Shown here: positions 4,915 to 64,000 of the stretch, piece after piece | Layout: each line of letters begins with the position of its first letter | Position numbering within the stretch: the first letter of the stretch is position 1 | Assembly: GCA_963705505.1 (NCBI GenBank) | Contig: CAVPJU010000010.1 | Location: forward strand, 28,488-92,487 | DNA from: an uncultured bacterium | GTDB taxonomy: Bacteria; Desulfobacterota_D; UBA1144; Nemesobacterales; UBA2774 | Length of the DNA: 64,000 nt | Direction of reading: 5' to 3' | The notes under the pieces: generated by a model | Databases searched by the model: none | What the model saw: the letters and a program-made list of their open reading frames with translations, nothing else | What the model was told of the DNA's origin: nothing | Translations under genes and position numbers: made by a program

Positions 4915-7299
4915 TTAGTGCGTGTTCCATTTCCAGTCCCGAATCTCGGGCATGTCTTCGCCGTGTTTGTGAATATAGTGTTTGTGGTCGAGCAGTTTGT
5001 CGCGGATGAATTGTTTGGCGTAGGCGCCCCTCGAGCCCAGACTCGAAACACGATCGATCACGTCACCGACCAAATGAAATCGGTCGAGGTCATTCAGGAC
5101 CGCCATGTCGAAGGGAGTTGTAGTGGTTCCCTCTTCCTTGTAACCGCGAACGTGCAAGTTCTTGTGGTTATTTCGGCGATAGGTCAGACGATGAATCAAC
5201 CAGGGATAACCATGATAGGCGAAGATGATCGGTTTGTCCTTGGTGAAGAGCAGATCGAAGTCATTGTCACTCAGTCCATGGGGATGCTCGCTTGCAGGCT
5301 GGAGCTTCATCAAGTCCACCACGTTAATCACGCGGATCTTTAGGTCTGGTAAGTGGTGTCGCAGTATCTCCACAGCTGCCAGCGTTTCCAAGGTCGGGAC
5401 ATCTCCCGCACAAGCCATCACTACATCCGGCTCGTCCCCCTCATCGTTGCTGGCCCACTCCCAAATGCCCAGCCCAGCCGTGCAGTGTTTAACGGCGGAA
5501 TCAATATCCAGCCATTGGAGCCCCGGCTGTTTGCCTGCAACAATAACATTGACGTAATGGCGGCTGCGCAGACAATGGTCGGCCACCGACAGCAAGGTGT
5601 TGGCATCAGGCGGTAGATATACGCGGATGATATTGGACTTCTTATTCACCACATGGTCGATGAAACCCGGGTCCTGGTGACTGAAACCGTTGTGGTCTTG
5701 ACGCCACACATGAGAGGTGAGCAGATAATTCAGCGAGGCGATGGGGCGTCTCCACGGGATGTGACGTGTCACCTTGAGCCATTTGGCATGTTGGTTGAAC
5801 ATCGAGTCCACGATGTGAATGAACGCTTCATAGCAGGAGAACAACCCGTGGCGACCGGTGAGGAGATAACCTTCCAACCAACCCTGACACAAATGCTCGC
5901 TCAGCACCTCCATTACCCGGCCGTCGGGTGATACATGGTCATCCGTTTTCAGAATTTCAGCGGTGGAGACGCGGTCGGTGATGTCGAACAAGTTCGTGAG
6001 ACGGTTCGACGCGGTTTCATCGGGGCCAAAAACCCGGAAGTTACGTTCTTCCCAATTCATTTTCATGACGTCCCGTACGAACGCTCCCATGATCCGAGTC
6101 GCTTCTGCAATTTCTGTGCCAGGCTGGGGAACAGCCACTGCATAATCTCGAAAATCCGGCATTTTCAGATCGCGAAGGAGAATCCCTCCATTAGCATGAG
6201 GATTGGCCCCCATTCGCCGCTCGCCCTTCGGGGCCAGTTCAGCGAGTTCTGGAATGAGTTTACCGCTCTCATCGAAAAGCTCCTCAGGCTTGTAGCTCTT
6301 CATCCATTGCTCCAGCATTTTCAGGTGCTGGGGGTTCGTCCCAATTTCTGAAAGAGGCACTTGGTGCGAGCGAAACGTGCCCTCGACCGGCAGGCCATCC
6401 ACTTCCTTCGGGCCTGTCCAACCCTTGGGTGTGCGCAAAATGATCATGGGCCACTGCGGCCGCTTCTTAAATCCTCCAGCGCGAGCCGTAGTCTGGATGT
6501 GTGTGATCTCCTCGATGATCGTATCCAGTGTGCCGGCCATGACCTGGTGAATTTCTTCGGGCTCTTCCCCCTCGACGAAATATGGATGGTAGCCATACCC
6601 ACGAAAGAGTTGGTCCAATTCCTCGTGACTGATACGCGCTAGGATGGTGGGGTTGGCAATCTTGTAGCCATTCAGGTGAAGAATGGGCAGGACCCCTCCA
6701 TCGTGGACGGGATTGAGGAATTTGTTCGAGTGCCAACTGGCGGCCAATGGACCAGTTTCTGCTTCGCCATCGCCGACTACACATGCGACCAGCAGGCCAG
6801 GATTGTCAAACGCAGCGCCATAAGCGTGGGCTAGCGAGTAGCCAAGTTCCCCTCCTTCGTTAATCGAGCCTGGTGTTTCCGGAGCGACGTGGCTGGGAAT
6901 CCCGCCGGGAAAGGAAAACTGGGTAAACAACTTTTTCATACCCGGTTCATCCTGCGAGACTTCCGGGTAGAATTCGCTGTAGGTGTCCTCCAGATAAGTG
7001 TTGGCTACCAATCCGGGTCCTCCGTGACCAGGACCGGCGACATAGATCATGTCGAGGTTATATTTTTTGATGACCCGGTTGAGATGAACATAGATAAAGT
7101 TCAAACCGGGCGTGGTGCCCCAATGACCGAGGAGTCGTGGCTTTACGTGCTCAAGCTTGAGCGGTTTCTTCAACCGCGGGTTGTCACAAAGATAAATTTG
7201 GCCGACAGATAGATAGTTGGCGGCACGCCAATAGGCATTCATCTTTCGCAGCTCATCGTCTGTGAGCGTCTTATCCGCAGGGTTCGTCTTTTTATTCAT
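4915..7299 (-). CDS. xfp: xylulose-5-phosphate/fructose-6-phosphate phosphoketolase
   Basis: 794/799 aa with the characteristic N-terminus ...[15 protein letters not shown]..., [13 protein letters not shown] and the TPP-binding region. The likely ATG start ([10 protein letters not shown]) is preceded by GAGGAG; the ORF track extends it 5 codons to a TTG. Confidence 0.93.
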
Positions 7300-16099: not shown

Positions 16100-16431
16100 A
16101 TGAAGTCTAATTTCAGCAAGTGGTTAATCATCCTTTGCGCCGGAGTGCTTGTGGGCTCGGGCTGGGCGCATGCAAGCGGAACGAAGAGCCTGCAGAGGAA
16201 AAGGTCGAAGAGGTCGAGGTTGACGAGGTCGAGACACCGTCTGCGCAGGATACTACCGAAGATATGACGGAGGAGTCTGTTGAGATGTCAGTCCAGGAAT
16301 CGACCGGTTCCGGCACTGAAGTAGAGGAAACGGTTGAAGAGACCGTGGATTCCGTTCAGGACGCGGACCAGCCAGCGCCCGACCAGACGCCCGACAAGAG
16401 CGGACAGGATTCCGGTCAAAACGCGCAGTAG
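16100..16431 (+). CDS. small acidic lipoprotein, apparent frameshift between signal peptide and mature part
   Basis: AGGAGG RBS, then ATG 16100 encoding MKSNFSKWLIILCAGVLVG... The acidic body (EEPAEEKVEEVEVDEVETP...) sits in the -1 frame from 16120. One extra G in the GGG run at 16153-16155 would restore a lipobox ...LGLGAC-K. Confidence 0.5.
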
Positions 16432-40813: not shown

Positions 40814-41479
40814 ATGGAAAGTCAAGGCGAAATGTATGACTACTACGTAATAGCGGCGGTAGTCATCGGACTCATCGAGTGCTTTTTCGGCTACAGGATT
40901 CTCAGGTTCCTCCTGGGCGTGCTGGGCTTCATCGCAGGCGCCGTGGTGGCCGGGAGCCTCGGGTACGAGCTCTCAAACGGAAGCGAGCTGATTTCCATTA
41001 TCTCCGGTATAGCGGGCGGTGTCATAGGCGCTTTCATCATGTACACGCTCTACGTAGTGGGGGTGTTTGCCATAGGGGCGGCGCTCGGCTTCATGATAGC
41101 GTCCTACGTTTTCGGCATTATGAATACGGGCCCTGTCACTCTGATGCTCGTAGCCGCAGCCGCGGCAGGCGGTATTCTCGCGGCTGTTTTCCGGAAGCCC
41201 ATGCTTATACTCGCGACCGCTTACGGCGGCTCGTATGCGGCGGTTACGGGGGTTTCGTACCTGCTCGCAAAGAATTTCAATCCTCTCGATCCGGAGTTCC
41301 TGAATTCCCTCGGTGAGGACCAGCTCTACAGGATGGCGATTATATGGTTCGGCCTCGGGGTATTCGGCTTCGTCGTCCAGCTTATGACTCTTCCCGCCGC
41401 TGGAGAAGCCGGGGATTCCGCCGCGGACGACGTCGGGGAAGCGGGTGCCGGAGAGGAGGACGGGGGAAAGGAGTCCTGA
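40814..41479 (+). CDS. multi-pass membrane protein with Gly-zipper helices (possibly DUF4203-like), inserted in the ccm operon
   Basis: 221 aa, ~6 predicted TM helices, acidic C-terminal tail. Confidence 0.5.
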   Translation: MESQGEMYDYYVIAAVVIGLIECFFGYRILRFLLGVLGFIAGAVVAGSLGYELSNGSELISIISGIAGGVIGAFIMYTLYVVGVFAIGAALGFMIASYVFGIMNTGPVTLMLVAAAAAGGILAAVFRKPMLILATAYGGSYAAVTGVSYLLAKNFNPLDPEFLNSLGEDQLYRMAIIWFGLGVFGFVVQLMTLPAAGEAGDSAADDVGEAGAGEEDGGKES

Positions 41480-52419: not shown

Positions 52420-54464
52420 ATGTCAGGATTGAAGAAGTGGATCACATTATTGCCGGTTTTTTTCTTGGCTCTGACTACGGTCTTTTTTACGAGCTGTAGG
52501 AATTCCGGTAGTGAGAAGCAGGCGAGTAAACAGGAGACCGTAACATGGGGATTGTCCGAGAGGCGGAGCAGGTAGCGGAGTCGAGGGGTCTTACGCCCAA
52601 GGACGTTGAGGCCGCTCTCAAGACTTACGTGCCTTCGGGGAAATATGACGATTACCTGATGTTTGCCTCCGGAGGACATTCCGGTCAGGTGTTCGTCATT
52701 GGCGTTCCTTCTATGAGGCTCCTCAAAGAGATAGCGGTATTCACGCCGGAGCCCTGGCAGGGATTTGCGACCGGATCGAAGGAGTCGGACGATTTACTGA
52801 AAGAAGGCTATATGCCCAACGGAAAAGACGGAAAGCTTACCTGGGCGGATACACACCACCCCGCTCTAAGCGAGACGAAAGGCGATTACGACGGACAGTT
52901 CTTATTCATAAACGATAAAGCCAATGCGAGGATCGCAGTCATCGACCTCCGCGACTTTGAAGTAAAACAGATCGTAAAGACGCCGAACATGATCTCGGAT
53001 CACGGCGCTACCTTTGTTACCCCGAATACCGAATACGTAATTGAGGGTTCCCAGTATGCAACGCCCCTTCCTTTCGAACGATACGCTCCTATGGATGAGT
53101 ATAAGGACAAATACAGGGGTCTCATTACGTTTCATAAGTTCGACAGGGAGAAGGGAAGGATAGACGAGTCCCAGTCATTCCAGATCGAGCTGCCTCCCTA
53201 CTGGCAGGACCTCTGCGACGCCGGGAAGAAAGTCAGTGAAGGATGGGTATTCTGCAACTCCATAAATACGGAGCTCGCCACAGGCGGCATTGAGCAGGGC
53301 AACCCTCCCTATGAAGCGGGCGTATCTCAAAGAGACATGGACTATATGCACGTAATTAACCTGAACAAGGCCGTCGAGGTTTCAAAAGAGGCGGGCAAGA
53401 CAGAGGTTATTAACGGAATGAAGGTAATTCCGCTCAACACGGCTATCTCGGAAGGTCTTTTGTATTTCATACCGGAGCCCAAGAGCCCCCACGGAGTCGA
53501 TGTAGCCCCGGGAGGAGATTATATAGTCGCTTCCGGCAAGCTCGACACACACGCGACGGTATATTCCTTCGACAAGATAATGGATGCCATGAAAAATAGC
53601 AAAATCGAGGGTAAGGATCCCTTCGGCGTCCCTGTACTGAACTTTAAGGATGTCGTCGCAGCGCAGGTCGAGATAGGCCTCGGGCCTCTCCATACGCAGT
53701 TCGATAACGAGGGTAACGCATATACGAGCGTTTTTATCGAGAGTACGGTTGCAAAATGGAAACTGGGCCCTCCTTACAATACGGGGGCAGACGCCTGGAC
53801 CCTCGTTGAGAAGATGCCGGTTGACTACAACATAGGCCACCTGGTTTGTGCGGAGGGCGATACCGTGTCCCCGGACGGCAAGTACTGTGTCGCGCTGAAC
53901 AAGTGGTCCATAGACAGGTTTACTCCGGTCGGCCCGCTGCATCCTCAGAATTTCCAGCTGATAGACATTTCGGGAAAGAAGATGCAGCTGCTTTACGATA
54001 TGCCTATAGGCTCAGGCGAGCCGCATTACGTTCAGATGATCAAGGCTGACAAGCTCAAACCATGGCTCGTTTATCCGGAGGTGGGATTTGATCCGGCGAC
54101 GATGAGCGTCAATCCCGACGCGGCAAAAGCCGGGGGTGAGAAAGTCGTGCGGAGTAACGGAAAAGTCGAGGTATGGATGACCGCTATCAGGAGCCATTAC
54201 AACCCCGAGCACATAGTCGCGAGCGAAGGGGATAAAGTAATAATACATATCACGAGCGTGGAGCGGGCGAGGGACGCTACACACGGTTTCGCCATCGACG
54301 GCTACAACGTTAACCTGAGCCTGGAGCCGGGTGAAAGCGAGACGGTGGAGTTCGTCGCGGACAAGGTTGGTGTGTATCCGTTCTACTGCACGGAGTTCTG
54401 CTCGGCGCTTCACCTGGAGATGATGGGTTATCTCCTTGTTGAGCCAAAACAGCCAAAGTCATGA
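52420..54464 (+). CDS. nosZ: nitrous-oxide reductase NosZ, Sec/lipoprotein-type (clade II-like); signal peptide and mature domain in different frames
   Basis: C-terminal CuA cupredoxin site ...FYCTEFCSALHLEMMGY; N-terminal beta-propeller region. The signal peptide MSGLKKWITLLPVFFLALTTVFFTSC (no twin-Arg) starts at 52420 and ends at a stop near 52570. The body ORF starts at 52545 in the -1 frame. One extra G in the G4 run at 52547-52550 would fuse the two parts. Confidence 0.85.
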
Positions 54465-54558
54465 ACTACTGAGGGCGCCCCATCCGGACCTTTAGTCACG
54501 GGAAGTGAAGGAGGGGGCGTCCTCGGTTCTAACCCAAAACGGAATAAGGAGGTTTGTT

Positions 54559-54928
54559 ATGAAAAAGTTAATAGCGCCGTTTTTACTTGTAACTTTGTTA
54601 GTGTTAGCGGGCGCCGTTTACGGAGCCCAAAATGCAAGAGACTGCCCAGTCGTGGCAGAAGCAGGCAAACGATACCAGGGCAGCTGTTATGAAAGTCTAC
54701 GGCGAGCTCGAGAAGCTGGATGTCAAGTCAGCAGCCGATGCGAAGGATCTTATTGCCGATGCCGTCGCCCAGCTCGGCGAAGGGGATAAGTACCTTAAGC
54801 AGGGGGACGAAGCCATGAATAAACAGGATTGGGAAAAGGCTAATTACGGTTATAACATGGCATGGCAGTATTACGTAAAAGCCGCAACATCCGGATTAAA
54901 TGCAAAGAGAATTTTAACCGGACAATAA
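54559..54928 (+). CDS. small secreted protein downstream of nosZ, apparent +1 frameshift between signal peptide and body
   Basis: AGGAGG RBS; signal peptide MKKLIAPFLLVTLLVLAGAVYGAQ; helical body MQETAQSWQKQ...AWQYYVKAA in the next frame. The A4 run at 54629-54632 is the likely indel site. Confidence 0.5.
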
Positions 54929-55061
54929 AAACTCAGGAGAACGGCGGTTCTCCCATACGACTGGGGACGCTCTTGAATAGCGGATATTTTAGAGTATTCC
55001 CCGCCGGTTGTTCAGAAGGGCCGATCTGAATACGATGTTATTACGAACGGAGGTTTAAAAA

Positions 55062-55715
55062 ATGAAAGAAAACGAATTGATATTCGGGCCGCGAATACCG
55101 AAGGAGCTGTGGGAGAAGGAGAGAAAGAGGTTTCTTGTTCCTTCGATCGTCCTCGTCGTTGCCGCGGTGCTGCTTTTCATCTCGATATTTCTCCCTTATT
55201 GGAAACTTACACTTTTCGCGCCTCAGTATCCTCAGGGTCTCAAAGCCAGTATGTACGTAAACAGGCTTGCGGGGGATATTCAGGAGATAGACGGGCTCAA
55301 TCACTATATAGGAATGAAGCCCATGGACGAGGCTGCCGTGCTCGAACGCACGCTCAGCATATTCATGATCATCGGTATAGCGCTCCTCATCGCGGGGGCC
55401 GTATACGTGCACAGCCCGATTGCGCTTTTCCTGTGCATCCCGGCGGTGCTTTACCCCGCGTTCTTTCTGGGCGACCTCTATTTCTGGATGCGGACCTTCG
55501 GCACGAACCTTAATCCGCACGCCCCTTTAAGCAGTGCGATAAAGCCCTTCGTACCACCCATACTCGGCGTGGGCCAGATCGCACAATTCAAGACTATCGC
55601 GAGCTGGGAGATAGGTCTCTATATGTCTATCGCGGCTTCGGTACTGATTGTCATAGGCCTCTACTTTCATCGTAAAGCTTATAAGCCGTTAATAGTAAAT
55701 GAAGGCGTCAGGTAG
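55062..55715 (+). CDS. nosB: NosB-like integral membrane protein (nos cluster)
   Basis: 217 aa, ~4-5 TM helices, positioned between nosZ and nosD as in clade II nos clusters. Confidence 0.55.
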   Translation: MKENELIFGPRIPKELWEKERKRFLVPSIVLVVAAVLLFISIFLPYWKLTLFAPQYPQGLKASMYVNRLAGDIQEIDGLNHYIGMKPMDEAAVLERTLSIFMIIGIALLIAGAVYVHSPIALFLCIPAVLYPAFFLGDLYFWMRTFGTNLNPHAPLSSAIKPFVPPILGVGQIAQFKTIASWEIGLYMSIAASVLIVIGLYFHRKAYKPLIVNEGVR

Positions 55716-55741
55716 AGAAAGGTGTAAATCCCGGGTGACCC

Positions 55742-57142
55742 GTGACTAAATATTGCCTTCTACATTTTTCCACGATCGTTATTCTTGCCCTCTCCGGAGC
55801 TGTGAACGGAGCGGCTGTCGCCAGGACAATCCATGTCTCACCGGACGGCCCCGTAAGATCAATTACTGAGGCTATAGCTTCTGCTGAGAGCGGTGATACC
55901 ATACGCATCCTGAAGGGAGACTATAAAGAACATATAGTAATCAACAAGACTTTAACAATTATAGGAGAGGGTTATCCCCGCATAGACGGCGGGGGGAAAG
56001 GAGTCGTCGTTTTAATAAAAGCCCCGAGTACCGTATTCAGGGGTATTCATGTGACGGGGAGCGGCGACAGCCTGAACCTTGAGGACGCTGGTATTATCCT
56101 CGATTCCGCACACGGGAGCGTCATAAAAGAAAACCGGCTCGATGATGTGCTCTTCGGTATATACCTCAAAAACTCTCCCGACAGTGTAATAGAAAAGAAC
56201 GTCGTCGAGGGCAAGCGGCTTACACTTCCCGAACGCGGCGACGGAATAAAGCTCTGGTACAGCTCAGGGACGAAGATACTCTATAACCGGGTCCTCCACA
56301 CTAGGGACCTTGTTATTTGGTGGTCGAGCAATACGCTTATAAAAGGGAATACCGTCGAGGAAGGAAGATACGGACTTCATTACATGTCGAGTAACCATAA
56401 CAGGTTCGAGGACAACATTTTCAGGAATAACTATGTGGGCGGGTTCCTCATGTATAGCAAGGGGATTGAGTTTTACAGGAATAGGTTCGTCAGTAACCGC
56501 GGCACGGGGTCGGGCTACGGAGTCGGGTTCAAGGACCTCGACGACGTAGTAGCCAAAGACAACCTTATCGCGGACAACCGCGTTGGAATCTTTCTCGATA
56601 ACTCGCCCTACCTCATCGATTCGTGGAATAATATAAGCGACAACGTTATAGCTTTCAACGACATAGGCGTCTCCCTCATGCCTTCGATAAGGAGGAACGC
56701 TTTTCACAAGAACAGCTTCGTAGATAACGACGAGCAGGTGGAGATAAGGGGAGGGGGAGAGCTTGCAGGGAACGAATGGTCCAAGGACGGCAGCGGGAAT
56801 TACTGGAGCGATTACATCGGATATGACGAGGACGGGGACGGGATAGGAGAGATACCCTACAAGTCCGAGAGCCTCTTCGAGAGCCTTATAGACTCGAAGC
56901 CCGAGCTCAGGATATTCGTGTTCAGCCCTGTTGCGAAGGCAATAGAGCTCGCTTCTCAGGCGTTTCCCGTGATCAAGCCCGAGCCCAAGCTCACGGACGA
57001 CTATCCGCTCGTCAGCTCGGCGATACCGCCTGACCTCAGGGCAGGCGGGAGGGAAAGGGAGTTGTCGCCGAGGCTTCTTTTCCTGTCCCTCTCTATGGTG
57101 ATGCTTCCCCTGATCTTTTACGGCTACATTATGAAACGGTAA
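55742..57142 (+). CDS. nosD: NosD, periplasmic parallel beta-helix copper-processing protein
   Basis: Signal peptide, repeated right-handed beta-helix units (NxxxxNxxxGI...), C-terminal TM. 466 aa. Confidence 0.82.
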   Translation: MTKYCLLHFSTIVILALSGAVNGAAVARTIHVSPDGPVRSITEAIASAESGDTIRILKGDYKEHIVINKTLTIIGEGYPRIDGGGKGVVVLIKAPSTVFRGIHVTGSGDSLNLEDAGIILDSAHGSVIKENRLDDVLFGIYLKNSPDSVIEKNVVEGKRLTLPERGDGIKLWYSSGTKILYNRVLHTRDLVIWWSSNTLIKGNTVEEGRYGLHYMSSNHNRFEDNIFRNNYVGGFLMYSKGIEFYRNRFVSNRGTGSGYGVGFKDLDDVVAKDNLIADNRVGIFLDNSPYLIDSWNNISDNVIAFNDIGVSLMPSIRRNAFHKNSFVDNDEQVEIRGGGELAGNEWSKDGSGNYWSDYIGYDEDGDGIGEIPYKSESLFESLIDSKPELRIFVFSPVAKAIELASQAFPVIKPEPKLTDDYPLVSSAIPPDLRAGGRERELSPRLLFLSLSMVMLPLIFYGYIMKR

Positions 57143-57155
57143 ACGGGAGCTTGAA

Positions 57156-58055
57156 TTGATTGAGATTAAGAACGTAACGAAGCGTTTCGGAAAGCTGACT
57201 GCAGTCGATTCGGTGAGCTTCAGGGCTGAAAAGGGTGAAGCGGTTTCCCTCCTCGGCGCGAACGGCGCCGGAAAGAGCACGCTTATCAAATGCATACTCG
57301 GGCTCCTCGATTATACGGGCGAGATTACGGTGAGCGGGCTCAGGGTGAAAGACCACCCGAAGGAGGCGAAGTCCCTAATCGGATACCTGCCGCAGGAGCC
57401 TCTTTTCTACGATATGCGCACACTCGATATAGTACGTTTCTTCGCGCGGCTCAGGAAAATTGACGAGAGGGGTTCATTGTCGGTCCTGGAGAAAGTGGGG
57501 CTTGGGGAGCACTCTTCCAAATACGCTTCAGAGCTTTCGGGAGGCATGAGGCAGCGCCTCTCTTTCGCTATAGCGCTTCTATCAGAGCCTATGTTCCTGA
57601 TACTGGACGAGCCCACTTCCAACCTCGATGCTCACGCGCGCGCTGAATTCCTCAGGCTAATCAAGGAATACAAGGAGAACGGTAAGACGGTGATCTTTTC
57701 CTCGCACAGGCTCGACGAGGTGGACTATCTGGCTGACAGGGCGGTCCTGATGAAAGACGGCAGTGTCGTCATGGACGAGGAGCCGCACAGGCTGAGGCAG
57801 TCCCTCGGGCTCGGCACGAAGATGAATATCGCTGTCCCTGAGGAGTATGTCACACTGGCGTATTCGGCGTTCGCCGGTGCCGGCATAATAGTTCACGGCA
57901 GAAACGGAAGGGGCTTCCTCGTGGAGGTGAAGAGCGGGGACAGCCTCCATCCTCTGAGGGAGCTGATGTCGAGAGACATACCCGTCCTCGGGTTCAGCGT
58001 CGAGGAGCCTACCATGGAAAATATACTCGAAGGAGCGGGAAAAGATGGAGCTTAG
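57156..58055 (+). CDS. nosF: NosF, ABC transporter ATP-binding protein
   Basis: Walker A GANGAGKST, signature LSGGMRQRL, Walker B LILDEPTSNLD. Confidence 0.82.
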   Translation: MIEIKNVTKRFGKLTAVDSVSFRAEKGEAVSLLGANGAGKSTLIKCILGLLDYTGEITVSGLRVKDHPKEAKSLIGYLPQEPLFYDMRTLDIVRFFARLRKIDERGSLSVLEKVGLGEHSSKYASELSGGMRQRLSFAIALLSEPMFLILDEPTSNLDAHARAEFLRLIKEYKENGKTVIFSSHRLDEVDYLADRAVLMKDGSVVMDEEPHRLRQSLGLGTKMNIAVPEEYVTLAYSAFAGAGIIVHGRNGRGFLVEVKSGDSLHPLRELMSRDIPVLGFSVEEPTMENILEGAGKDGA

Positions 58056-58884
58056 AAATATTCTCATACTGGCGGGGAAGGAAACGAGGGAGTCGCTCAA
58101 GAACAGGTGGTTCGTTTTATATACCGTCTCTTTTTCCGTCCTCGCCGTGCTCATCTTTTCTATAGCGCCCGGGAGGGGCGAGATCACGGGCATATCGGGC
58201 TACGGCAGGACGGCCGCGAGCCTGGTCAACCTCGTGCTTCTCTTTGTCCCGCTAATAGCGCTTATAACCGGAGCGATAAGCATATCCGGGGAGAGAGAGA
58301 ACGGAACGCTGCAGTACCTGCTCTCGCACCCCGTAACCAAATCCGAGGTGTTCGTGGGCAAGTTCTGCGGGATACTCATCCCGATCTGTTTTTCAATTTC
58401 GCTCGGTTTCGGGCTCGCCGGTATAGGAGTCGCGCTCAGAGGCGGGAGCGGGAACTCGGCGGAGTTCATACTGACTGCGCTCCTATCGGGGCTCCTGGCT
58501 GCGTCCCTGCTGAGCGTGGGGTTTGTCGTCTCGGTGTTTTCGGGCAGGGCTTCGAAGGCGATAGGCGTCGCGGTGTTCCTCTGGCTCCTTTTTATCGTTC
58601 TCGGAGACCTCGGCATCATGGGCACAGCTGCAGCGATGGACCTCGGCATAAAGCAGGTCTTCGTGCTCGCGCTGCTAAACCCGGCGGAGGTGTTCAAGAT
58701 CGCTTCCGTGCTCGTGCTCAGTCCGCGGTTCGAGATACTGGGCCCAGTCGGAGTTTACGCCGTCAGGACGTTCGGCAGGGAAGGGGTGGTCTATCTGCTC
58801 CTCTCCGTCATGGCGCTATGGACCATCATACCGTTCGTATATGCATTTATAACTTTCAGCATATTCAGGAGGGAAGAAGCATGA
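58045..58884 (+). CDS. nosY: NosY, ABC-2 type permease
   Basis: 279 aa, 6-TM permease. Overlaps nosF and nosL. Confidence 0.78.
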   Translation: MELRNILILAGKETRESLKNRWFVLYTVSFSVLAVLIFSIAPGRGEITGISGYGRTAASLVNLVLLFVPLIALITGAISISGERENGTLQYLLSHPVTKSEVFVGKFCGILIPICFSISLGFGLAGIGVALRGGSGNSAEFILTALLSGLLAASLLSVGFVVSVFSGRASKAIGVAVFLWLLFIVLGDLGIMGTAAAMDLGIKQVFVLALLNPAEVFKIASVLVLSPRFEILGPVGVYAVRTFGREGVVYLLLSVMALWTIIPFVYAFITFSIFRREEA

Positions 58885-59315
58885 AATACTTGCTCATACT
58901 GCTTGTGCTCCTGGGTTTCGCCGCCTGTAAGGATAAAATCGATACCGGGCCTCATATTATTCATTACGGGGAAGATGTCTGCGAGAGGTGCAAGATGATT
59001 ATAAGCGACAAGCGTTTTGCCGCCCAATACATCACGGAGAGCGGCGAGGCTAAAAAATTCGACGATATAGGGTGCATGATGGAGGCGCTCAAAGAGAAAA
59101 ACAAGGACGGTGGCGGCGTGCTCGCCGTCTATGTCACCGACTACGTCACCGGGGAATGGATAGACGGCGGAAAGGCTTTTTATCTCAAAAACACGGAGCT
59201 CAAGACCCCTATGGGGTACGGTATTGCAGCTTTCGGAAACGAGGAATCGATGCGGGCGAGCCCATTTTATAAGGACGGGCGGGCGCTCGGGGGAATCGAT
59301 GACCTCCAGAAATAA
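58881..59315 (+). CDS. nosL: NosL, copper-chaperone lipoprotein
   Basis: MKYLLILLVLLGFAAC (lipobox), then a conserved NosL core (...GPHIIHYGEDVCERCKMII...DIGCM...). It sits in frame inside the spurious 402-aa ORF 58107..59315. Confidence 0.8.
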   Translation: MKYLLILLVLLGFAACKDKIDTGPHIIHYGEDVCERCKMIISDKRFAAQYITESGEAKKFDDIGCMMEALKEKNKDGGGVLAVYVTDYVTGEWIDGGKAFYLKNTELKTPMGYGIAAFGNEESMRASPFYKDGRALGGIDDLQK

Positions 59316-59334
59316 ATAATCCCGGACGGTTCCC

Positions 59335-59922
59335 ATGGATAAAAGGATTATAGATCCTAGTGAGAAGATTCAGAGCGCCGCGCTTGCGCTCTTTATCAAA
59401 AAAGGCATAGCGGGCACGACGACAAAAGAGATCGCGAGGAAGGCGGGTGTATCCGAAGGCTCCATTTATAATTACTTCGAGAGCAAGGGAGACCTCGCGT
59501 ATAAGCTCTTTGTCCGGTATATGGACAAGTTCAGGGACGAGCTCTCGGTAAAATCGGCAGGCGCGGACGGCCCCGCGGGAAAGCTATCCGCCGTCGTCGG
59601 GGCTTTCTTCGGATTTGCCGAGAGAGAGCCCGAGGCATACGCCTATATAATGATAGGACACTACACCGAGCTCCAGAAAATGAAATATGACAAAAAGAAG
59701 CCCAAGGACGTATTCGTCGAAATAATCGGGGAAGGCGTTAAAAACGGCGTATTCATGAGCATGGACGAGAACCTCGGGGCAGCCTTCGTCATAGGGATGG
59801 TTACCAGGGCGATCCTTTTTCATAAGAGCGGCATGCTCGGTATGCCCTATGCGAGGCTTATAGAGGATACCGTGGCCTCTTCCTTACGCGTCCTCGGCGC
59901 AGACACGCCGCGGCCCTTGTAA
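59335..59922 (+). CDS. TetR/AcrR family transcriptional regulator
   Basis: HTH region TTTKEIARKAGVSEGSIYNYFESKGDL. Confidence 0.8.
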   Translation: MDKRIIDPSEKIQSAALALFIKKGIAGTTTKEIARKAGVSEGSIYNYFESKGDLAYKLFVRYMDKFRDELSVKSAGADGPAGKLSAVVGAFFGFAEREPEAYAYIMIGHYTELQKMKYDKKKPKDVFVEIIGEGVKNGVFMSMDENLGAAFVIGMVTRAILFHKSGMLGMPYARLIEDTVASSLRVLGADTPRPL

Positions 59923-60035
59923 ACCCGTATAAAATTTTCATAGTATTAAACTTATCCGCTGGAATTATATCCCGGAATGTGCAGGTTATATTTATACTTT
60001 ATGCATGCTGGTAAAAATTACACGGAGGATATAGA

Positions 60036-60428
60036 ATGCTCGTAAAAGAATGTATGACCGTAAACCCTGTGACCTTTTCCCCTAAAGAGGACGTCAGGGT
60101 CGCCTTTAACACACTTACCGACCGCAAGATTCGTCAGGCGCCTGTACTCGAGAATGGAAAGCTGGCCGGTATAGTCACGGACAGGGACCTCAGGCTCGCG
60201 GTGGTGGAGACCCTTACGGAGCCGGGTTTGACTGTGGGTTCCGTCATGACGCGGGACCCCGTAACGGTCAACGAGAATTCTTTACTCAAAGATGCGGCCA
60301 GGGTGATCGGTAAAAACAAGTTCAACGCGCTCCCGGTGCTTTCCGATTCCGGTGAGCTCGTGGGCGTCCTCACTACCACCGATATACTCAACGGTCTCGT
60401 TAGAGCGCTCGATGCGGAGAAAAAATGA
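60036..60428 (+). CDS. CBS-domain pair protein
   Basis: 130 aa, two CBS motifs. Confidence 0.7.
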   Translation: MLVKECMTVNPVTFSPKEDVRVAFNTLTDRKIRQAPVLENGKLAGIVTDRDLRLAVVETLTEPGLTVGSVMTRDPVTVNENSLLKDAARVIGKNKFNALPVLSDSGELVGVLTTTDILNGLVRALDAEKK

Positions 60429-60486
60429 CGACCCGTTTCTTTCTATGTTTAAGGCATTAATATATTGTTGACAAAGGAGAGCCTTT

Positions 60487-60927
60487 ATGAAGATTGAGAA
60501 AATATTGTTTCCGACGGATTTCTCCGCCAGGTCGCTCAGCGCGAGGGAGCACGCGCTTTACCTCGCCCGGGCCCTCGACTCGTCCGTTTATCTGCTTCAC
60601 GCGATAGAGCCTCTGAAATACGAGGAGGTGGACGACGAGATCAGGGAATTTTATAAGACGCTCGAGACCCAGCTCGGTGAAAAAATGGAACGGGAAAAAG
60701 AGGTCTTTGAAAAAAGGGGTCTAAGGGTGGATACGGACATAGTTATCGGTCAGAGGTGGAGGGTAATAGACACATATGCCAAAGAGAAGGGAATCGACCT
60801 GATAATCATGGGGTCGCACGGCATCAGGACCGAGACGGGGGAGGTTTCCGTGGGCACGACTAGCCACAAGGTCATGTTCTCGTCCCCATGCCCCGTTCTG
60901 ATAGTGAGGCACGACGAAGCCCGTTAG
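60487..60927 (+). CDS. universal stress protein (UspA family)
   Basis: 146 aa: ILFPTDFS..., ...DLIIMGSHG..., ...S.VLIV. Confidence 0.8.
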   Translation: MKIEKILFPTDFSARSLSAREHALYLARALDSSVYLLHAIEPLKYEEVDDEIREFYKTLETQLGEKMEREKEVFEKRGLRVDTDIVIGQRWRVIDTYAKEKGIDLIIMGSHGIRTETGEVSVGTTSHKVMFSSPCPVLIVRHDEAR

Positions 60928-60991
60928 TAATATTCTTAATGAGATTTTTACAAAACTGATATAAAATTAGGGCATATTATTACAGGAGGAG

Positions 60992-61810
60992 ATGCTTGAT
61001 ATGACGAGATTCCTGCCGGATTTGAAGCGGTTTGTCCTTTTAATCGCTGTCGTTGCGGCACCATTTCTATTATCGTCCGGGCCGGGCTTAAACGCGTACG
61101 CTCAGGACGGCGGTACTCAGGCCGCGCCTATAAAACCCGTGATAGACCCGGTCGCAGACAAGCTGCTGAAGTCTATGGGGGCTACGCTCTCTTCCGCCAA
61201 GGCTTTCACTTTCAGGGCCGATATAAACTTCGACCAGCTCCTTGTTTCCGGGCAGCAGATTCAATACGGAGGGACGGCGAACCTGACGGTCGAGAGGCCC
61301 AACAAGGTTTATGTTGAGTTCACGGGGGACCTGGACGGAAAAAGAATATGGTATACGGGTAAGGACGTTACAGTGCTCGACGTGAATAAGAATTTTTACG
61401 GCAAGCTGGCCGTACCCGCAACTATTGATGAAGCCATGGATAACCTTATGGATCAATACGGGTTCACCCTCCCGCTTTCCGACGTAATGGTGAGCGACCC
61501 GTATAAGGCGTTTATCAGAAACGTCGCCGCGGGCGTAGTCATCGGGGACAGCATGATAAACGGTCAGCAGTGCAAGCACCTGGCTTTCGTCGAGAAGTAT
61601 ATAGATTGGCAGATATGGATTTCAGACGGGGCGCAGGCGCTTCCCTGCAAGCTGGTCATAACGTACAAGACCATACCGGGCGGGCCTCAATATTCGGCGG
61701 TATTTTCCAACTGGGCGATCAACCCGGCTATAAACGCGTCGGTATTCACGCCTGTGCTGCCTGAAGGGGCAGAACGGATAGAGTTTATAAAAATGGGTAA
61801 TCAACAATAA
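60992..61810 (+). CDS. periplasmic DUF2092-like (LolA-like fold) protein
   Basis: Signal peptide, 272 aa. Family assignment is tentative. Confidence 0.45.
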   Translation: MLDMTRFLPDLKRFVLLIAVVAAPFLLSSGPGLNAYAQDGGTQAAPIKPVIDPVADKLLKSMGATLSSAKAFTFRADINFDQLLVSGQQIQYGGTANLTVERPNKVYVEFTGDLDGKRIWYTGKDVTVLDVNKNFYGKLAVPATIDEAMDNLMDQYGFTLPLSDVMVSDPYKAFIRNVAAGVVIGDSMINGQQCKHLAFVEKYIDWQIWISDGAQALPCKLVITYKTIPGGPQYSAVFSNWAINPAINASVFTPVLPEGAERIEFIKMGNQQ

Positions 61811-61823
61811 TCCGGGGGCTGAT

Positions 61824-62921
61824 ATGAGAAACCTGAGACAAATGATAAATAGAACGACTATAGCTGCTGCCGTATTCGCGTTCGCAGCATCGGGGGTATT
61901 AATGACGGGAGACGCCTATTCCCGGGGCGGGTTCGGAGGAGGAGGGTTCGGAGGCGGTTACAGGGGCGCGGATTTCGGCTCAGGAATGGGCGACAGGGGC
62001 TTCGGAAACGTCAGGTATTCGGGGAACAGCATGGGTGACATGTCCGGCTACAAGGGCTTTCAGGGGGATAATTTCGGAAGCAAACAGTCCTTCCAGAACT
62101 CCGATTTCAGTCAGGACAAGAGCGACTTCGGCGGGGATCAGGACTCATTCTCGGGCCGCCAGTCCGAGTCCCAGGACAATACGGGCATGACCCAACGCCA
62201 GGCCACGAGCCAGAACCGCGCCATAGAATCCGATAACGGGCAGAATACCAGCAAAACGACCAACGGCACGACGACTAACGGCAAGACCAACAGCAGCACG
62301 AACAGCAACAGCACGAACAAAAATAACACCAACAACACCAATAACAGCAACAATTCCAACAACAAGAATAACAACAACAATAACAACAATAATAATAATA
62401 ATAACACCTACAACACCTACAACAATTACAACAACTACAATCACTATTGGGGCGGATACTGGGGCTCATGGGGCGGTTATTACGGCGGGTGGGCTTTCGC
62501 GGGCGGCCTGGCCATGGGAGCCGCAATAGCGAGTATCCCGGCAAGCTCCTCCACTGTCTATGTATCGGGAAATCCGTTCTATTATTCGGACGGCGTGTAC
62601 TACGCTCCTCAGGGCAGCCAGTACATAGTCGTTCCGCCTCCGCCGGGCGCAGTCGTCGATACGCTCCCACCGTCATGCGACACCGTATATGCAGGTGATG
62701 ATTCGTATTTTGACTGCGGGGGCGCGTTCTATTCGTCTGCGGACGCGGGGTTTCAGGTCGTACAGCCCCCTGTGGGCGCGACAGTGGACTCTCTCCCCCA
62801 GGGAGCGCAGCGGAAAACAATAAACGGGACGACTTACTATCTCTTCGGCGCCGCGTATTACCAGCCGTTTTACAGCGGGAGCAGCGTGATATACCAGGTA
62901 GTCCCCGATCCGACTGCTTAA
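61824..62921 (+). CDS. secreted Gly-rich / poly-Asn low-complexity protein with C-terminal duplicated Pro/Cys motif
   Basis: Signal peptide; GGFGGGGFGGGY...; ~50-residue N/T/K run encoded by an (AAC/AAT)n tract; YWGGYWGSWGGYYGGW; two copies of VVPPPPGAVVDTLP... / VVQPPVGATVDSLP.... Confidence 0.55.
   Translation: MRNLRQMINRTTIAAAVFAFAASGVLMTGDAYSRGGFGGGGFGGGYRGADFGSGMGDRGFGNVRYSGNSMGDMSGYKGFQGDNFGSKQSFQNSDFSQDKSDFGGDQDSFSGRQSESQDNTGMTQRQATSQNRAIESDNGQNTSKTTNGTTTNGKTNSSTNSNSTNKNNTNNTNNSNNSNNKNNNNNNNNNNNNNTYNTYNNYNNYNHYWGGYWGSWGGYYGGWAFAGGLAMGAAIASIPASSSTVYVSGNPFYYSDGVYYAPQGSQYIVVPPPPGAVVDTLPPSCDTVYAGDDSYFDCGGAFYSSADAGFQVVQPPVGATVDSLPQGAQRKTINGTTYYLFGAAYYQPFYSGSSVIYQVVPDPTA
62300..62450 (+). 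repeat. imperfect (AAC/AAT)n trinucleotide microsatellite inside the CDS
   Basis: aacaacaagaataacaacaacaataacaacaataataataataat... The coding frame gives poly-Asn. Confidence 0.8.
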
Positions 62922-62957
62922 GCGACCCGACAGGGGACTCATCAGGGCTTTACGGCT

Positions 62958-64000
62958 TCAGAGCCTTTTCAGGGACGTGTATAACTGTCCTGCAGCCAGA
63001 GGCAGCAGGCTCATGATTGCTATGAGCGTCCAGCCGCCGCGGCCGGGATCGACGACCCCCAGCACATTCGCGACTGGTTCTATATAGACCGCGGCCAGGA
63101 TTATCAGCGTGCAGAGAGCTATGGCTCCCCAAACGTATACGTTGCGTGTCACCTCGTTCTTCAACATCCCCGACCTGGCGCCGCGCATGTTGAATACGTG
63201 CAGGATCTGAGCGAAAGCCAGAGTGAGGAACGAGACCGAGACGGCCCTTTTGTCCCCGAATCCGAGTTTATACATAGCCAGGAGTAACGCACCGAGCACG
63301 GCTGCGGTGATGACCGTGCCGTAACCCGCTATACCGAGCCAGCTCCTCTGCGTTATGATGTGCTCTTTCGGGTCTCTCGGCGGGGAACGCATGACCCTTT
63401 CGTCACCTTCGCCCATCCCGAGGGCGAGCGCCGGGAATACGTCCGTCACGAGGTTAAGGAATAGTATCTGGAGGGGCATGAGCGGAAGGGGGATATGGAC
63501 GAAGGAAGCGATAGTCACGACCATGATTTCGCTCACGTTGCATGAAAGGAGGTAGAATATGAACTTCCTTATGTTCCCGAATATAATCCTTCCCTGCTCC
63601 ACGGCGTGGACTATGGTCGAAAAAGAGTCGTCCTTGAGAACTATATCGGCTGCCTCCTTAGCCACCTGAGTCCCCCGCTTCCCCATCGCGATGCCTATGT
63701 CCGCCTGCTTGAGCGCCGGAGCGTCGTTAACGCCGTCCCCGGTCATCGCGACTACGAACCCCTCTTCCTGATAGAATTTAACGAGCGCGAGCTTCTGCTC
63801 CGGGCTTACGCGCGCTAATATCAGCGACTCGGCTACGCTTATTTTAAATTCCTCGGGCAGCTCTTCGATCGCTTTCAGGTCTTTACCGTGAATTACGGGT
63901 TCGTCTGCCCTGTCCGTCAGTCCGACCGCGAGAGCGATATTCCTTGCTGTCGAGGGGTGGTCGCCCGTTACCATTACGACCTTTATCCCGGCCTCTAGAC
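62958..64000 (-). CDS. P-type cation-transporting ATPase (type II, Ca/Mg-like), C-terminal ~345 aa; gene continues past the window end
   Basis: Hinge motif MTGDGVNDAPALKQADIGIAMG followed by C-terminal TM helices (M5-M10). Confidence 0.82.
   Translation of the reverse strand, partial: LEAGIKVVMVTGDHPSTARNIALAVGLTDRADEPVIHGKDLKAIEELPEEFKISVAESLILARVSPEQKLALVKFYQEEGFVVAMTGDGVNDAPALKQADIGIAMGKRGTQVAKEAADIVLKDDSFSTIVHAVEQGRIIFGNIRKFIFYLLSCNVSEIMVVTIASFVHIPLPLMPLQILFLNLVTDVFPALALGMGEGDERVMRSPPRDPKEHIITQRSWLGIAGYGTVITAAVLGALLLAMYKLGFGDKRAVSVSFLTLAFAQILHVFNMRGARSGMLKNEVTRNVYVWGAIALCTLIILAAVYIEPVANVLGVVDPGRGGWTLIAIMSLLPLAAGQLYTSLKRL

Follow-up and report, generated by a model that had tools for sequence, protein, structure and literature searches.

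Introduction

LolA-fold proteins of the periplasm operate with a client in several described systems, namely LolA/LolB and RseB-RseA / MucB-MucA. Gly-zipper_Omp/YMGG and SlyB-like proteins represent a second point of reference, being exported proteins with a short hydrophobic segment of the pattern GxxxGxxxA/S. In E. amylovora, a DUF6515 gene contains (GCC)3-5, the triplet copy number of which differs between strains (PMC12365104). In bacterial proteins of the cell wall and envelope, Q/N-rich regions often constitute disordered linkers (PMC4606120). No functional study of DUF6515 or DUF2092 was found in the literature. Here, a DUF6515 gene and the DUF2092 gene that precedes it were analyzed within a 64 kb stretch of DNA, referred to below as the window, and compared with these systems. 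The host genome belongs to Candidatus Dadabacteria.

Domain Organization of the DUF6515 Protein

The gene is located at positions 61824..62921 of the + strand, starts with ATG and encodes 365 residues plus a stop codon. Its product matches the Pfam profile PF20125 with a score of 108.6 bits (E 4.3e-31) against a gathering threshold of 24.9 bits, residues 183-360 being aligned to profile positions 6-176 of 179, which covers the C-terminal ~180 residues end to end. The match takes in the aromatic-Gly block, the hydrophobic segment, an invariant Pro and, in duplicate, the PPxGAxV..LP / YY hairpin motifs. The 365-residue ORF is genuine and encodes an exported DUF6515 family protein. Three ORFs on the minus strand (62138-62407, 62145-62444 and 62275-62820), encoding poly-Leu/Ile/Val/Cys, mirror the low-complexity coding strand and are artefacts, as an earlier note on this DNA had stated of the poly-Leu/Ile frames. 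Scanning for promoters and terminators around the gene gave signals at chance level only, and no special fold was found in the region 3' of it.

From its N-terminus, the protein comprises a signal peptide, a GGFGGG region, a polar low-complexity linker, an aromatic-Gly block, a hydrophobic Gly/Ala segment and an all-beta C-terminal domain, an order common to homologues from several phyla. The Sec-type signal peptide (aa 1-33, 61824..61922, +) is recognized by its sequence features: an n-region with three Arg, a 17-residue hydrophobic core with a 19-residue Kyte-Doolittle mean of 1.65, and a predicted cleavage site after A-Y-S and before R34. An A-x-A/S site directly before RGGFGG is kept in homologues, in agreement with the signal peptide originally proposed, and no lipobox Cys is present in the sequence in or after it. 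The Gly-rich start that follows is also common to homologues. It opens a region at aa 34-140 (61923..62243, +) whose composition is Gly/aromatic (GGFGGG) and then Ser/Gln/Asp-rich; this low-complexity region, with an AF2 pLDDT of 25-37, is predicted to be disordered. The GGFGGGG repeats reported earlier are present at aa 34-45 but nowhere else, and degenerate G/F/M/D repeats follow them. Across mature aa 34-225 as a whole, pLDDT is 25-45, in comparison with ~90 in the beta domain, and the first ~190 mature residues (Gly/aromatic, polar and Asn-rich) are therefore modeled as disordered.

An Asn/Thr/Ser/Lys tract, regarded as a length-variable spacer from its composition, Tandem Repeats Finder (TRF) output and strain and species comparison, occupies aa 141-206 (62244..62441, +) and consists of 55% Asn and 30% Ser+Thr. 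Its longest uninterrupted run, Asn13, is located at aa 182-194 (62367..62405, +) and is encoded by mixed AAC/AAT codons. Asn represents only 3.4% of residues across the long ORFs of the window; the run is therefore no chance event. A repeat at 62301-62440 with a period of 6/9 and 66-74% matches was detected by TRF, the sole sizeable tandem repeat within the 64 kb. Thus the Asn/Thr/Lys tract on an imperfect AAC/AAT repeat, as previously described, is borne out. An (AAC)n microsatellite is too strong a description, however: the repeat is not pure, AAC and AAT occur in the same proportion as throughout the genome, and since perfect triplet runs reach only 5 units, the longest being (AAT)5, the term was loosely used. 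The tract causes assembly breaks.

The aromatic-glycine block YWGGYWGSWGGYYGGW, claimed from the outset, is found at aa 208-223 (62445..62492, +); it has low pLDDT, and WGGYYxG appears in the family consensus. A metagenome scan with its back-translated pattern retrieved 2 contigs, both repeating species already in the set. Adjacent to it, the hydrophobic Gly/Ala segment AFAGGLAMGAAIASIPA (62493..62543, +), assessed by Kyte-Doolittle values and family comparison, displays a GxxxGxxxA pattern and ends at the invariant Pro239.

The C-terminal domain (62544..62918, +) is modeled as all-beta, with 12 strands in three 4-strand units, and holds the duplicated PPxGAxVDxLP. It is confidently predicted, with pLDDT ~90, has no relative among solved structures and possibly represents a new fold. 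The duplication is recovered when one half is compared with the other by BLASTP (E 3e-6), which upholds the claim of a duplicated C-terminal motif. Cys follows the first PPxGAxVDxLP copy only, and no Cys other than C285 and C298 is present in the protein. Invariant or near-invariant columns in A1/A2 are P239, G300, Y303, P315/316, G318 and P325. A disulfide between Cys285 and Cys298 (62676..62717, +) is probable from co-variation in the family: among 294 aligned domains, both Cys are present in 118, neither in 160 and a single one in 16.

Carriers of the PPxGAxVDxLP motif, for which the earlier note had suggested a homologue search, proved abundant and correspond to Pfam DUF6515, which comprises 4804 representative clusters. 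An annotation look-up of homologues, one from Methylococcus capsulatus included, returned none. As one more ordinary representative of a large, catalogued but uncharacterised bacterial family, the gene overturns nothing; it is interesting yet not extraordinary.

The DUF2092 Partner

Immediately upstream lies a gene that the earlier note missed (60992..61810, +). It encodes a DUF2092 periplasmic protein of 272 residues with its own signal peptide (AYA followed by Q) and a LolA-like fold, in which the unclosed beta-barrel plus helical lid of the LolA superfamily is found. The two genes are separated by a 13-nt spacer (61811..61823, +) containing a GGGGG run that is Shine-Dalgarno-like and located 8 nt upstream of the ATG. 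No terminator-like site occurs between them, and the spacer, as read from its sequence, would imply co-transcription. An exact look-up of the two proteins in the encoding-contig collection found neither.

The arrangement is not peculiar to this window. In 75 of 80 related loci, retrieved with a 6-sequence alignment since a 22-sequence version was too divergent, a DUF2092 gene is located immediately upstream on the same strand (13 nt away here), and the pairing spans Dadabacteria, Alpha-, Gamma- and Deltaproteobacteria, and Verrucomicrobia. No third conserved gene was found at these loci. Other neighbors are limited to single lineages: a sulfatase to Alphaproteobacteria, TetR-CBS-Usp and a P-type ATPase to Dadabacteria, and Fe-S genes to Methylococcaceae. 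Three apparent DUF2092+DUF6515 fusions (P0001, P0004 and P0012) were rejected as Rosetta-stone evidence; since the internal signal peptide is kept they were treated as merged gene calls that demonstrate adjacency only, and the middle of P0001 looks out of frame. In a concatenated AF2 model, obtained without a multimer model or PAE and hence a weak test, the hydrophobic segment was not ordered beside DUF2092, and pLDDT at aa 223-232 was 45, versus 66 with the domain alone, so that a carrier step gains no support from modeling. Strictly conserved in at least five phyla or classes, the module gives both DUFs a testable hypothesis of a periplasmic carrier or chaperone plus client.

Length Variation of the Asn Tract

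The earlier note had predicted slippage that would alter protein length in frame, to be checked by comparing repeat length across strains, and the in-frame variation is confirmed. In three strains with 95-98% nucleotide identity, the linker has 71, 70 and 69 residues with N-runs of 13, 12 and 15, respectively, plus other indels; L086 has a one-codon deletion at 62403-62405, while L090 carries the N15 run. Changed columns are concentrated in the tract, with 22 in 198 nt inside versus 3 in 471 nt outside (Fisher p 9e-10), the length thus varying while the flanks are conserved. Among five related species, the N-run spans N6 to N23. All length changes between strains preserve the frame. The Asn tract therefore displays SSR-driven in-frame length polymorphism. 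A phase-variable, on/off contingency signature was not found at the tract, where perfect runs comprise at most 5 triplets and the frame is kept in every observed change. Over the gene, the codons that differ from L086 number 11 with synonymous and 2 with non-synonymous changes, which reflects purifying selection.

Poly-Asn tracts with N-runs of 6-23 are confined to one Candidatus Dadabacteria clade, and among 78 family representatives no N-run exceeds 3. At the same linker position, other DUF6515 members possess DNNDVNRN, NEANxLQQNR or NRPG repeats, and the L001 paralogue carries an (NRPG)n linker. The poly-Asn tract is the form into which a hypervariable linker has been elaborated in this clade. 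It exemplifies how, in nature, slippage can act in frame on a repeat that is imperfect, here in a lineage without cultivated members, and may serve as a strain marker for Dadabacteria.

Cellular Location and Alternative Explanations

In some relatives, a PG_binding_1 or SH3_3 domain is fused at the C-terminus. Together with the paired Cys and the LolA-fold periplasmic partner, these fusions suggest a periplasmic rather than an extracellular location for the DUF6515 protein. The explanation that we favor, tentatively and as a nearly even chance, is a DUF6515 envelope protein, exported by Sec and residing in the periplasm, whose aromatic/hydrophobic segment is handled by the LolA-like partner and whose disordered region is a flexible spacer. 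The hydrophobic cavity of DUF2092 would shield or deliver this segment in the periplasm, by analogy with LolA bearing the acyl chains of lipoproteins or RseB holding RseA. Subsequently, the beta domain would settle at the membrane or peptidoglycan. The composition of the spacer would be more important than its exact length, and replication slippage may be tolerated for this reason.

The earlier note instead proposed a secreted extracellular matrix, adhesin or phase-separating protein; in the rival explanation built on it, the Asn tract would be an adaptive slippage hotspot producing surface variation. A signal peptide followed by an extended stretch of low complexity, Gly/aromatic and Asn-rich, is consistent with such a role, as are the length differences between strains, one family representative with Lcl_C, the C-terminal domain of a Legionella collagen-like adhesin, and the enrichment of bacterial Q/N-rich regions in envelope proteins (PMC4606120). 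However, no outer-membrane secretion machinery, sortase signal, autotransporter or curli-type genes occur beside the pair in any lineage, and the LolA-fold partner is itself periplasmic. The fusions to PG_binding_1 and SH3_3 suit a cell-wall or periplasmic site. Moreover, perfect triplet runs of at most 5-6 units and a codon mix at the genome-wide ratio do not resemble a contingency locus, and most of the family does not possess a poly-Asn tract. The extracellular role is thus rather unlikely and yields to a periplasmic one.

A broader version of the periplasmic explanation regards DUF2092-DUF6515 as a widespread, unrecognised two-component envelope system. A LolA-fold carrier would ferry a non-lipidated client through the periplasm, holding it by its aromatic-Gly/glycine-zipper segment, a lipid-free analogue of lipoprotein sorting, and the disordered Gly/aromatic/Asn region of the client would be a length-tunable periplasmic spacer or gel, diversified by slippage in this Dadabacteria clade. 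On this scale the proposal is distinctly unlikely.

The hydrophobic segment also raises the question of membrane topology. A bitopic or two-pass inner-membrane protein, with aa 224-239 as a true transmembrane helix and the beta domain in the cytoplasm, is suggested by the uncharged 17-residue hydrophobic stretch, its GxxxGxxxA pattern, the Trp/Tyr belt before it, and the Arg directly after the invariant Pro in many homologues. A single-pass segment was defined as a hydrophobic helix at least ~19 residues long whose Kyte-Doolittle mean is no lower than 1.6. That value is reached in 27% of relatives, but the 19-residue mean is 1.33 here and 1.16 at the family median, a charged residue is located inside the segment in 113 of 231 relatives, and AF2 does not model the segment as a helix. 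In addition, PG_binding_1 and SH3_3, domains that are only extracytoplasmic, are fused C-terminally to the same architecture, and the co-variation of the two Cys speaks for a disulfide. The segment is probably not a membrane-spanning helix, although in part of the family it could still anchor the protein in the membrane; a cytoplasmic beta domain is quite improbable.

A functional amyloid or prion-like assembler would account for the low-complexity region in another way, the Asn/Tyr-rich tract (NNNN...TYNTYNNYNNYNHY) and aromatic-Gly block driving cross-beta self-assembly in the envelope and DUF2092 acting as an anti-aggregation chaperone, as CsgC/CsgE do on curli subunits. Michelitsch and Weissman (2000) reportedly drew the line for a Q/N-rich domain at 30 or more Q/N within a stretch of 80 residues. 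Residues 130-209 contain 40 Q+N, and the tract accordingly counts as Q/N-rich, or prion-like, in composition. Its (N-N-Y) units, which we take to be similar in composition to yeast prion domains, were counted in favor of this explanation, as were the alternating N-V/I-N-V/I stretches ahead of the aromatic block in some relatives. An N-rich tract is no conserved feature of the family, however; the linkers of other members are R/Q/E/P-rich, and a poly-Asn amyloid therefore cannot be the conserved function. With one search pattern the alternating N-V motif was matched by only 4 of 81 representatives, and N-V-N-V was dropped as a family-wide feature. Furthermore, no curli or Fap family was matched at E <= 1, where DUF6515 is the sole Pfam match, and no dedicated secretion operon was found among the neighbors. 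Amyloid assembly is thus very doubtful.

Finally, the reading that there is no true gene, the ORF being merely kept open by the trinucleotide repeat, has practically no chance of being correct: low-complexity DNA does yield ORFs on both strands, but a Pfam score far above the cutoff, homologues in the thousands, conserved synteny, the 11:2 codon substitution pattern and exclusively in-frame indels between strains rule it out.

Comparison with Known Systems

The favored arrangement, a LolA-fold periplasmic protein with a DUF6515 client, differs from LolA/LolB and RseB-RseA / MucB-MucA in that the candidate client has neither a lipobox nor an anti-sigma domain and the partner gene comes first. 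No Cys is located in or after the DUF6515 signal peptide, which sets the protein apart from the lipoprotein clients of LolA. The short GxxxGxxxA segment of this exported protein recalls the glycine-zipper envelope proteins; here, however, the lipobox is again absent, glycine-zipper Pfam families gave zero matches to the window protein at E <= 1, and the pattern is visible by eye only. With the Q/N-rich prion-like domains of bacterial envelope proteins the tract shares its 40 Q+N in 80 residues, a likeness of composition alone, as it is not conserved among orthologues. In comparison with the DUF6515 gene of E. amylovora, the repeat is AAC/AAT rather than GCC and imperfect, and the frame is always kept, so that no on/off switching occurs; what both genes display is a difference in in-frame triplet copy number between strains, represented here by N12, N13 and N15.

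Family membership and architecture

The C-terminal half of the protein encoded at 61824-62921 (+ strand, ATG start, 365 codons, with a GGGGG run 8 nt upstream of the ATG) scores 108.6 bits on PF20125, where the cutoff is 24.9 (E 4e-31), and on this match the gene product clearly belongs to DUF6515. The family is large: when the C-terminal domain was used as a profile in an exhaustive search, 4804 representative clusters had E <= 1e-3 and 2490 had E <= 1e-10, and homologues carrying the C-terminal motif, for which the earlier note had proposed a search, are thus plentiful. No functional study of DUF6515 was found in the literature searched. A scan with one genome per species gave 297 relatives, the closest being Candidatus Dadabacteria / 'Thermodesulfobacteriota' MAGs with 90-93% identity over the domain, which assigns the window to a Dadabacteria genome.

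The N-terminal segment (aa 1-33) contains three Arg and a 17-residue hydrophobic core, with A-Y-S before R34, and the signal peptide noticed earlier can be read in the translation. It is followed by RGGFGGGGFGGGYRG (aa 34-45) and degenerate Gly/Phe/Met/Asp repeats, a Ser/Gln/Asp-rich stretch (aa 86-140), the Asn tract (aa 141-206; 55% Asn, 30% Ser+Thr), the aromatic-Gly block YWGGYWGSWGGYYGGW (aa 208-223), an uncharged, Gly/Ala-rich hydrophobic segment (aa 224-240) and a Tyr/Pro-rich C-terminal region (aa 241-365) in which PPxGAxVDxLP occurs twice. Full-length homologues keep this entire architecture: a signal peptide ending A-x-A/S, RGGFGGG-type repeats and a polar repetitive linker, then a WGGYYxG aromatic block, a GxxxGxxxA/S hydrophobic segment ending at an invariant Pro and a duplicated beta-rich domain. 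The window protein has a single His; in several relatives (P0025, P0019, P0108, P0009) His-rich stretches (such as HYHYHHDYWHDDD and HRHVDVDVHHH) replace the Asn/Tyr stretch before the hydrophobic segment, and may bind metal in parts of the family.

Composition and length variation of the Asn tract

In the 64 kb window TRF located a single substantial tandem repeat, at 62301-62440 (period 6/9, 66-74% matches); two other short repeats, at 16202-16233 and 41394-41439, have periods of 15 and 24 with about 2 copies each. The products of the long ORFs in the window contain 3.4% Asn, so the uninterrupted N13 (aa 182-194, nt 62367-62405) is far beyond chance. An AAC/AAT repeat is present as described earlier, but it is not a pure microsatellite, being imperfect, with (AAT)5 as its longest perfect triplet run and an AAC:AAT ratio of 24:13, equal to that of the window's long ORFs (281:141). 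The minus-strand poly-Leu/Ile/Val ORFs are also present, and are mirror artefacts as the same note stated. The linker sequence is hypervariable across the family but always low-complexity and repetitive, with Asn/Thr/Ser tracts in the nearest Dadabacteria clade, DNNDVNRN octapeptide repeats in a sister Dadabacteria group and NEANxLQQNR-type repeats in Alpha- and Gammaproteobacteria. In the 78 family representatives that have a long N-terminal region, Asn runs reach 3 residues at most, indicating that long poly-Asn is specific to the window's clade. The gene thus belongs to a known, uncharacterised family and carries a low-complexity expansion peculiar to its clade.

Five species of the clade have longest N-runs of 6, 11, 13, 18 and 23, and the linker from SDNGQN to YWGG spans 60-84 residues. 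Two close strains were recovered via a conserved neighbour gene. Compared with the window (linker 71 aa, N13), L086 (95.2% nucleotide identity over 8.4 kb) has a 70-aa linker with N12, one codon fewer and several AAC/AAT differences, and L090 (98.2% over 4.5 kb) has a 69-aa linker with N15, lacking an NSNNSNN block and carrying one extra NNY unit. Differences between window and L090 fall on 22 of the 198 columns in the tract and on 3 of the 471 columns elsewhere in the compared gene (Fisher p 9e-10). The reading frame is kept in all tract changes, which bears out the expectation of in-frame length variation and implies that the tract is not an on/off contingency switch. It is a degenerate repeat that slips. 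Outside the tract, 11 synonymous and 2 non-synonymous codon differences separate window and L086, the pattern of a gene under purifying selection. The DUF6515 gene is 98.8% identical between these two, while the 8.4-kb locus (window 55061-63435) averages 95.2%; judged by this comparison the gene, tract apart, is better conserved than its surroundings. Two metagenomic contigs, L087 (2211) and L089, break off within the poly-Asn tract, their edges carrying at least 15 and at least 23 Asn codons, indicating that the tract breaks assemblies; its length may be under-reported in MAGs.

The DUF2092-DUF6515 pair and its neighbourhood

The gene directly upstream (60992-61810, +), 13 nt from the DUF6515 gene, matches DUF2092 at E 1e-74, and its product likewise begins with a signal peptide, which ends AYA|Q. 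An NCBI/ENA record with an 866-kb contig contains an identical DUF2092 protein. With the window DUF2092 protein as tblastn query, DUF2092 was located immediately upstream and in the same orientation in 75 of 80 fetched loci, and four of the remaining five are contig ends with no upstream sequence. These loci come from Dadabacteria, Acetobacteraceae and other Alphaproteobacteria, Methylococcaceae, Syntrophobacteraceae/Desulfuromonadales and Verrucomicrobiota. The surrounding genes vary from lineage to lineage, and therefore the pair itself is the conserved unit. In L001 (4513-8870) two tandem pairs are separated by a methyltransferase gene, and the first DUF6515 paralogue (5355-6287), with no Pfam hit on record, carries an (NRPG)n linker in place of Asn repeats. 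The apparent DUF2092+DUF6515 fusion proteins P0001, P0004 and P0012 (L005 8001-9812) keep an internal signal peptide; the middle of P0001 looks out of frame, and all three are probably frameshifts or merged gene calls and not genuine fusions. The strict DUF2092-DUF6515 module, together with an apparently new beta fold, is the by-product of more interest.

The order TetR - CBS - Usp - DUF2092 - DUF6515 - convergent P-type cation ATPase (window 59335-63974; L006-L017) is conserved in 9-10 Dadabacteria species and was not seen outside Dadabacteria in the loci compared. A sulfatase gene lies near the pair in 21 loci (see the alphaproteobacterial loci L018-L058), judged from example ORFs and L005 4566-6059; it gives the impression, from loci not counted by taxon, of being limited to Alphaproteobacteria, and could be lineage synteny or a functional hint. 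Just upstream in the window lies a nitrous-oxide reductase cluster (52545-59315), comprising nosZ (nos_propeller, 52545-54464), an ORF of 217 aa that matches no Pfam family (55062-55715), nosD (55742-57142), an ABC ATPase (57156-58055), an ABC-2 permease (58045-58884) and NosL (about 58.9-59.3 kb). For work on N2O sinks, the presence of a complete nos cluster in Candidatus Dadabacteria may be of interest.

Structure, location and possible function

In an AlphaFold model built on a 22-sequence alignment, the last ~125 residues form an all-beta domain whose 12 strands make up three four-strand units (mean pLDDT 83.7, pTM 0.78, domain blocks 89-94). Its two halves align at E 3e-6, confirming the duplication previously reported for the C-terminal motif; the Cys ascribed to that motif follows only one of the two copies. 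The protein has exactly two Cys, C285 and C298, and across 294 aligned domains both are found in 118, neither in 160 and a single one in 16, a both-or-neither pattern such as a disulfide should give. The mature N-terminal ~190 residues, at pLDDT 25-45 in a concatenated DUF2092+DUF6515 model, are predicted to be disordered. Additional PG_binding_1, SH3_3/SH3_4 or Lcl_C domains, at the C-terminus or flanking, occur in P0019, P0044-P0046 and one member of alignment A5, with PG_binding_1 (P0019) or SH3_3 at the C-terminus of relatives of the same architecture.

Signal peptides on both proteins indicate that both are exported. The C-terminal domain is placed outside the cytoplasm by three observations: the PG_binding_1/SH3_3 fusions, the Cys pairing and the obligatory partner, an exported protein with a LolA fold. 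We tentatively favour, at somewhat less than even probability, a reading in which the DUF6515 protein would be an envelope component in the periplasm, the LolA-like partner would shield or deliver that protein's aromatic/hydrophobic segment, on the model of LolA with its lipoprotein cargo or of RseB with RseA, and the low-complexity region would be a flexible spacer of uncritical length. A concatenated AF2 model, a weak test of the carrier step, gave no support for it.

The extracellular matrix, adhesin or phase-separating role proposed in the earlier note found no support and is unlikely: the indications point to the periplasm, no secretion machinery lies nearby, and nothing points to transport of the DUF6515 protein past the outer membrane. 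A functional amyloid driven by the Q/N-rich tract would suit the 40 Q+N per 80 residues in the tract region, but that tract is not conserved among orthologues, which makes such a role rather improbable. Equally doubtful is a bitopic membrane protein with a cytoplasmic beta domain. The hydrophobic segment has no helix in the AlphaFold model, its 19-residue Kyte-Doolittle mean is weak (1.33; family median 1.16) and half of the relatives have a charged residue within it, so that it is not regarded as membrane-spanning; the extracytoplasmic domain fusions in relatives and the Cys pair also argue against this topology. That the ORF is not a gene has a negligible probability, being excluded by homology, synteny and selection, and the ORF first noticed is real.

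Comparison with known systems

The DUF2092 partner has the LolA fold in its predicted model, but the client in a Lol-type pair is a lipoprotein and the DUF6515 client is not, so that strictly speaking the two do not form a Lol-type pair. Nor is the DUF6515 gene a phase-variable locus, strictly defined. The tract resembles Q/N-rich domains in composition and in nothing beyond it; bacterial envelope proteins are already known to contain Q/N-rich linkers (PMC4606120). In Erwinia amylovora the DUF6515 gene contains a (GCC)3-5 repeat differing among strains, an independent precedent for a strain-variable triplet repeat (PMC12365104).
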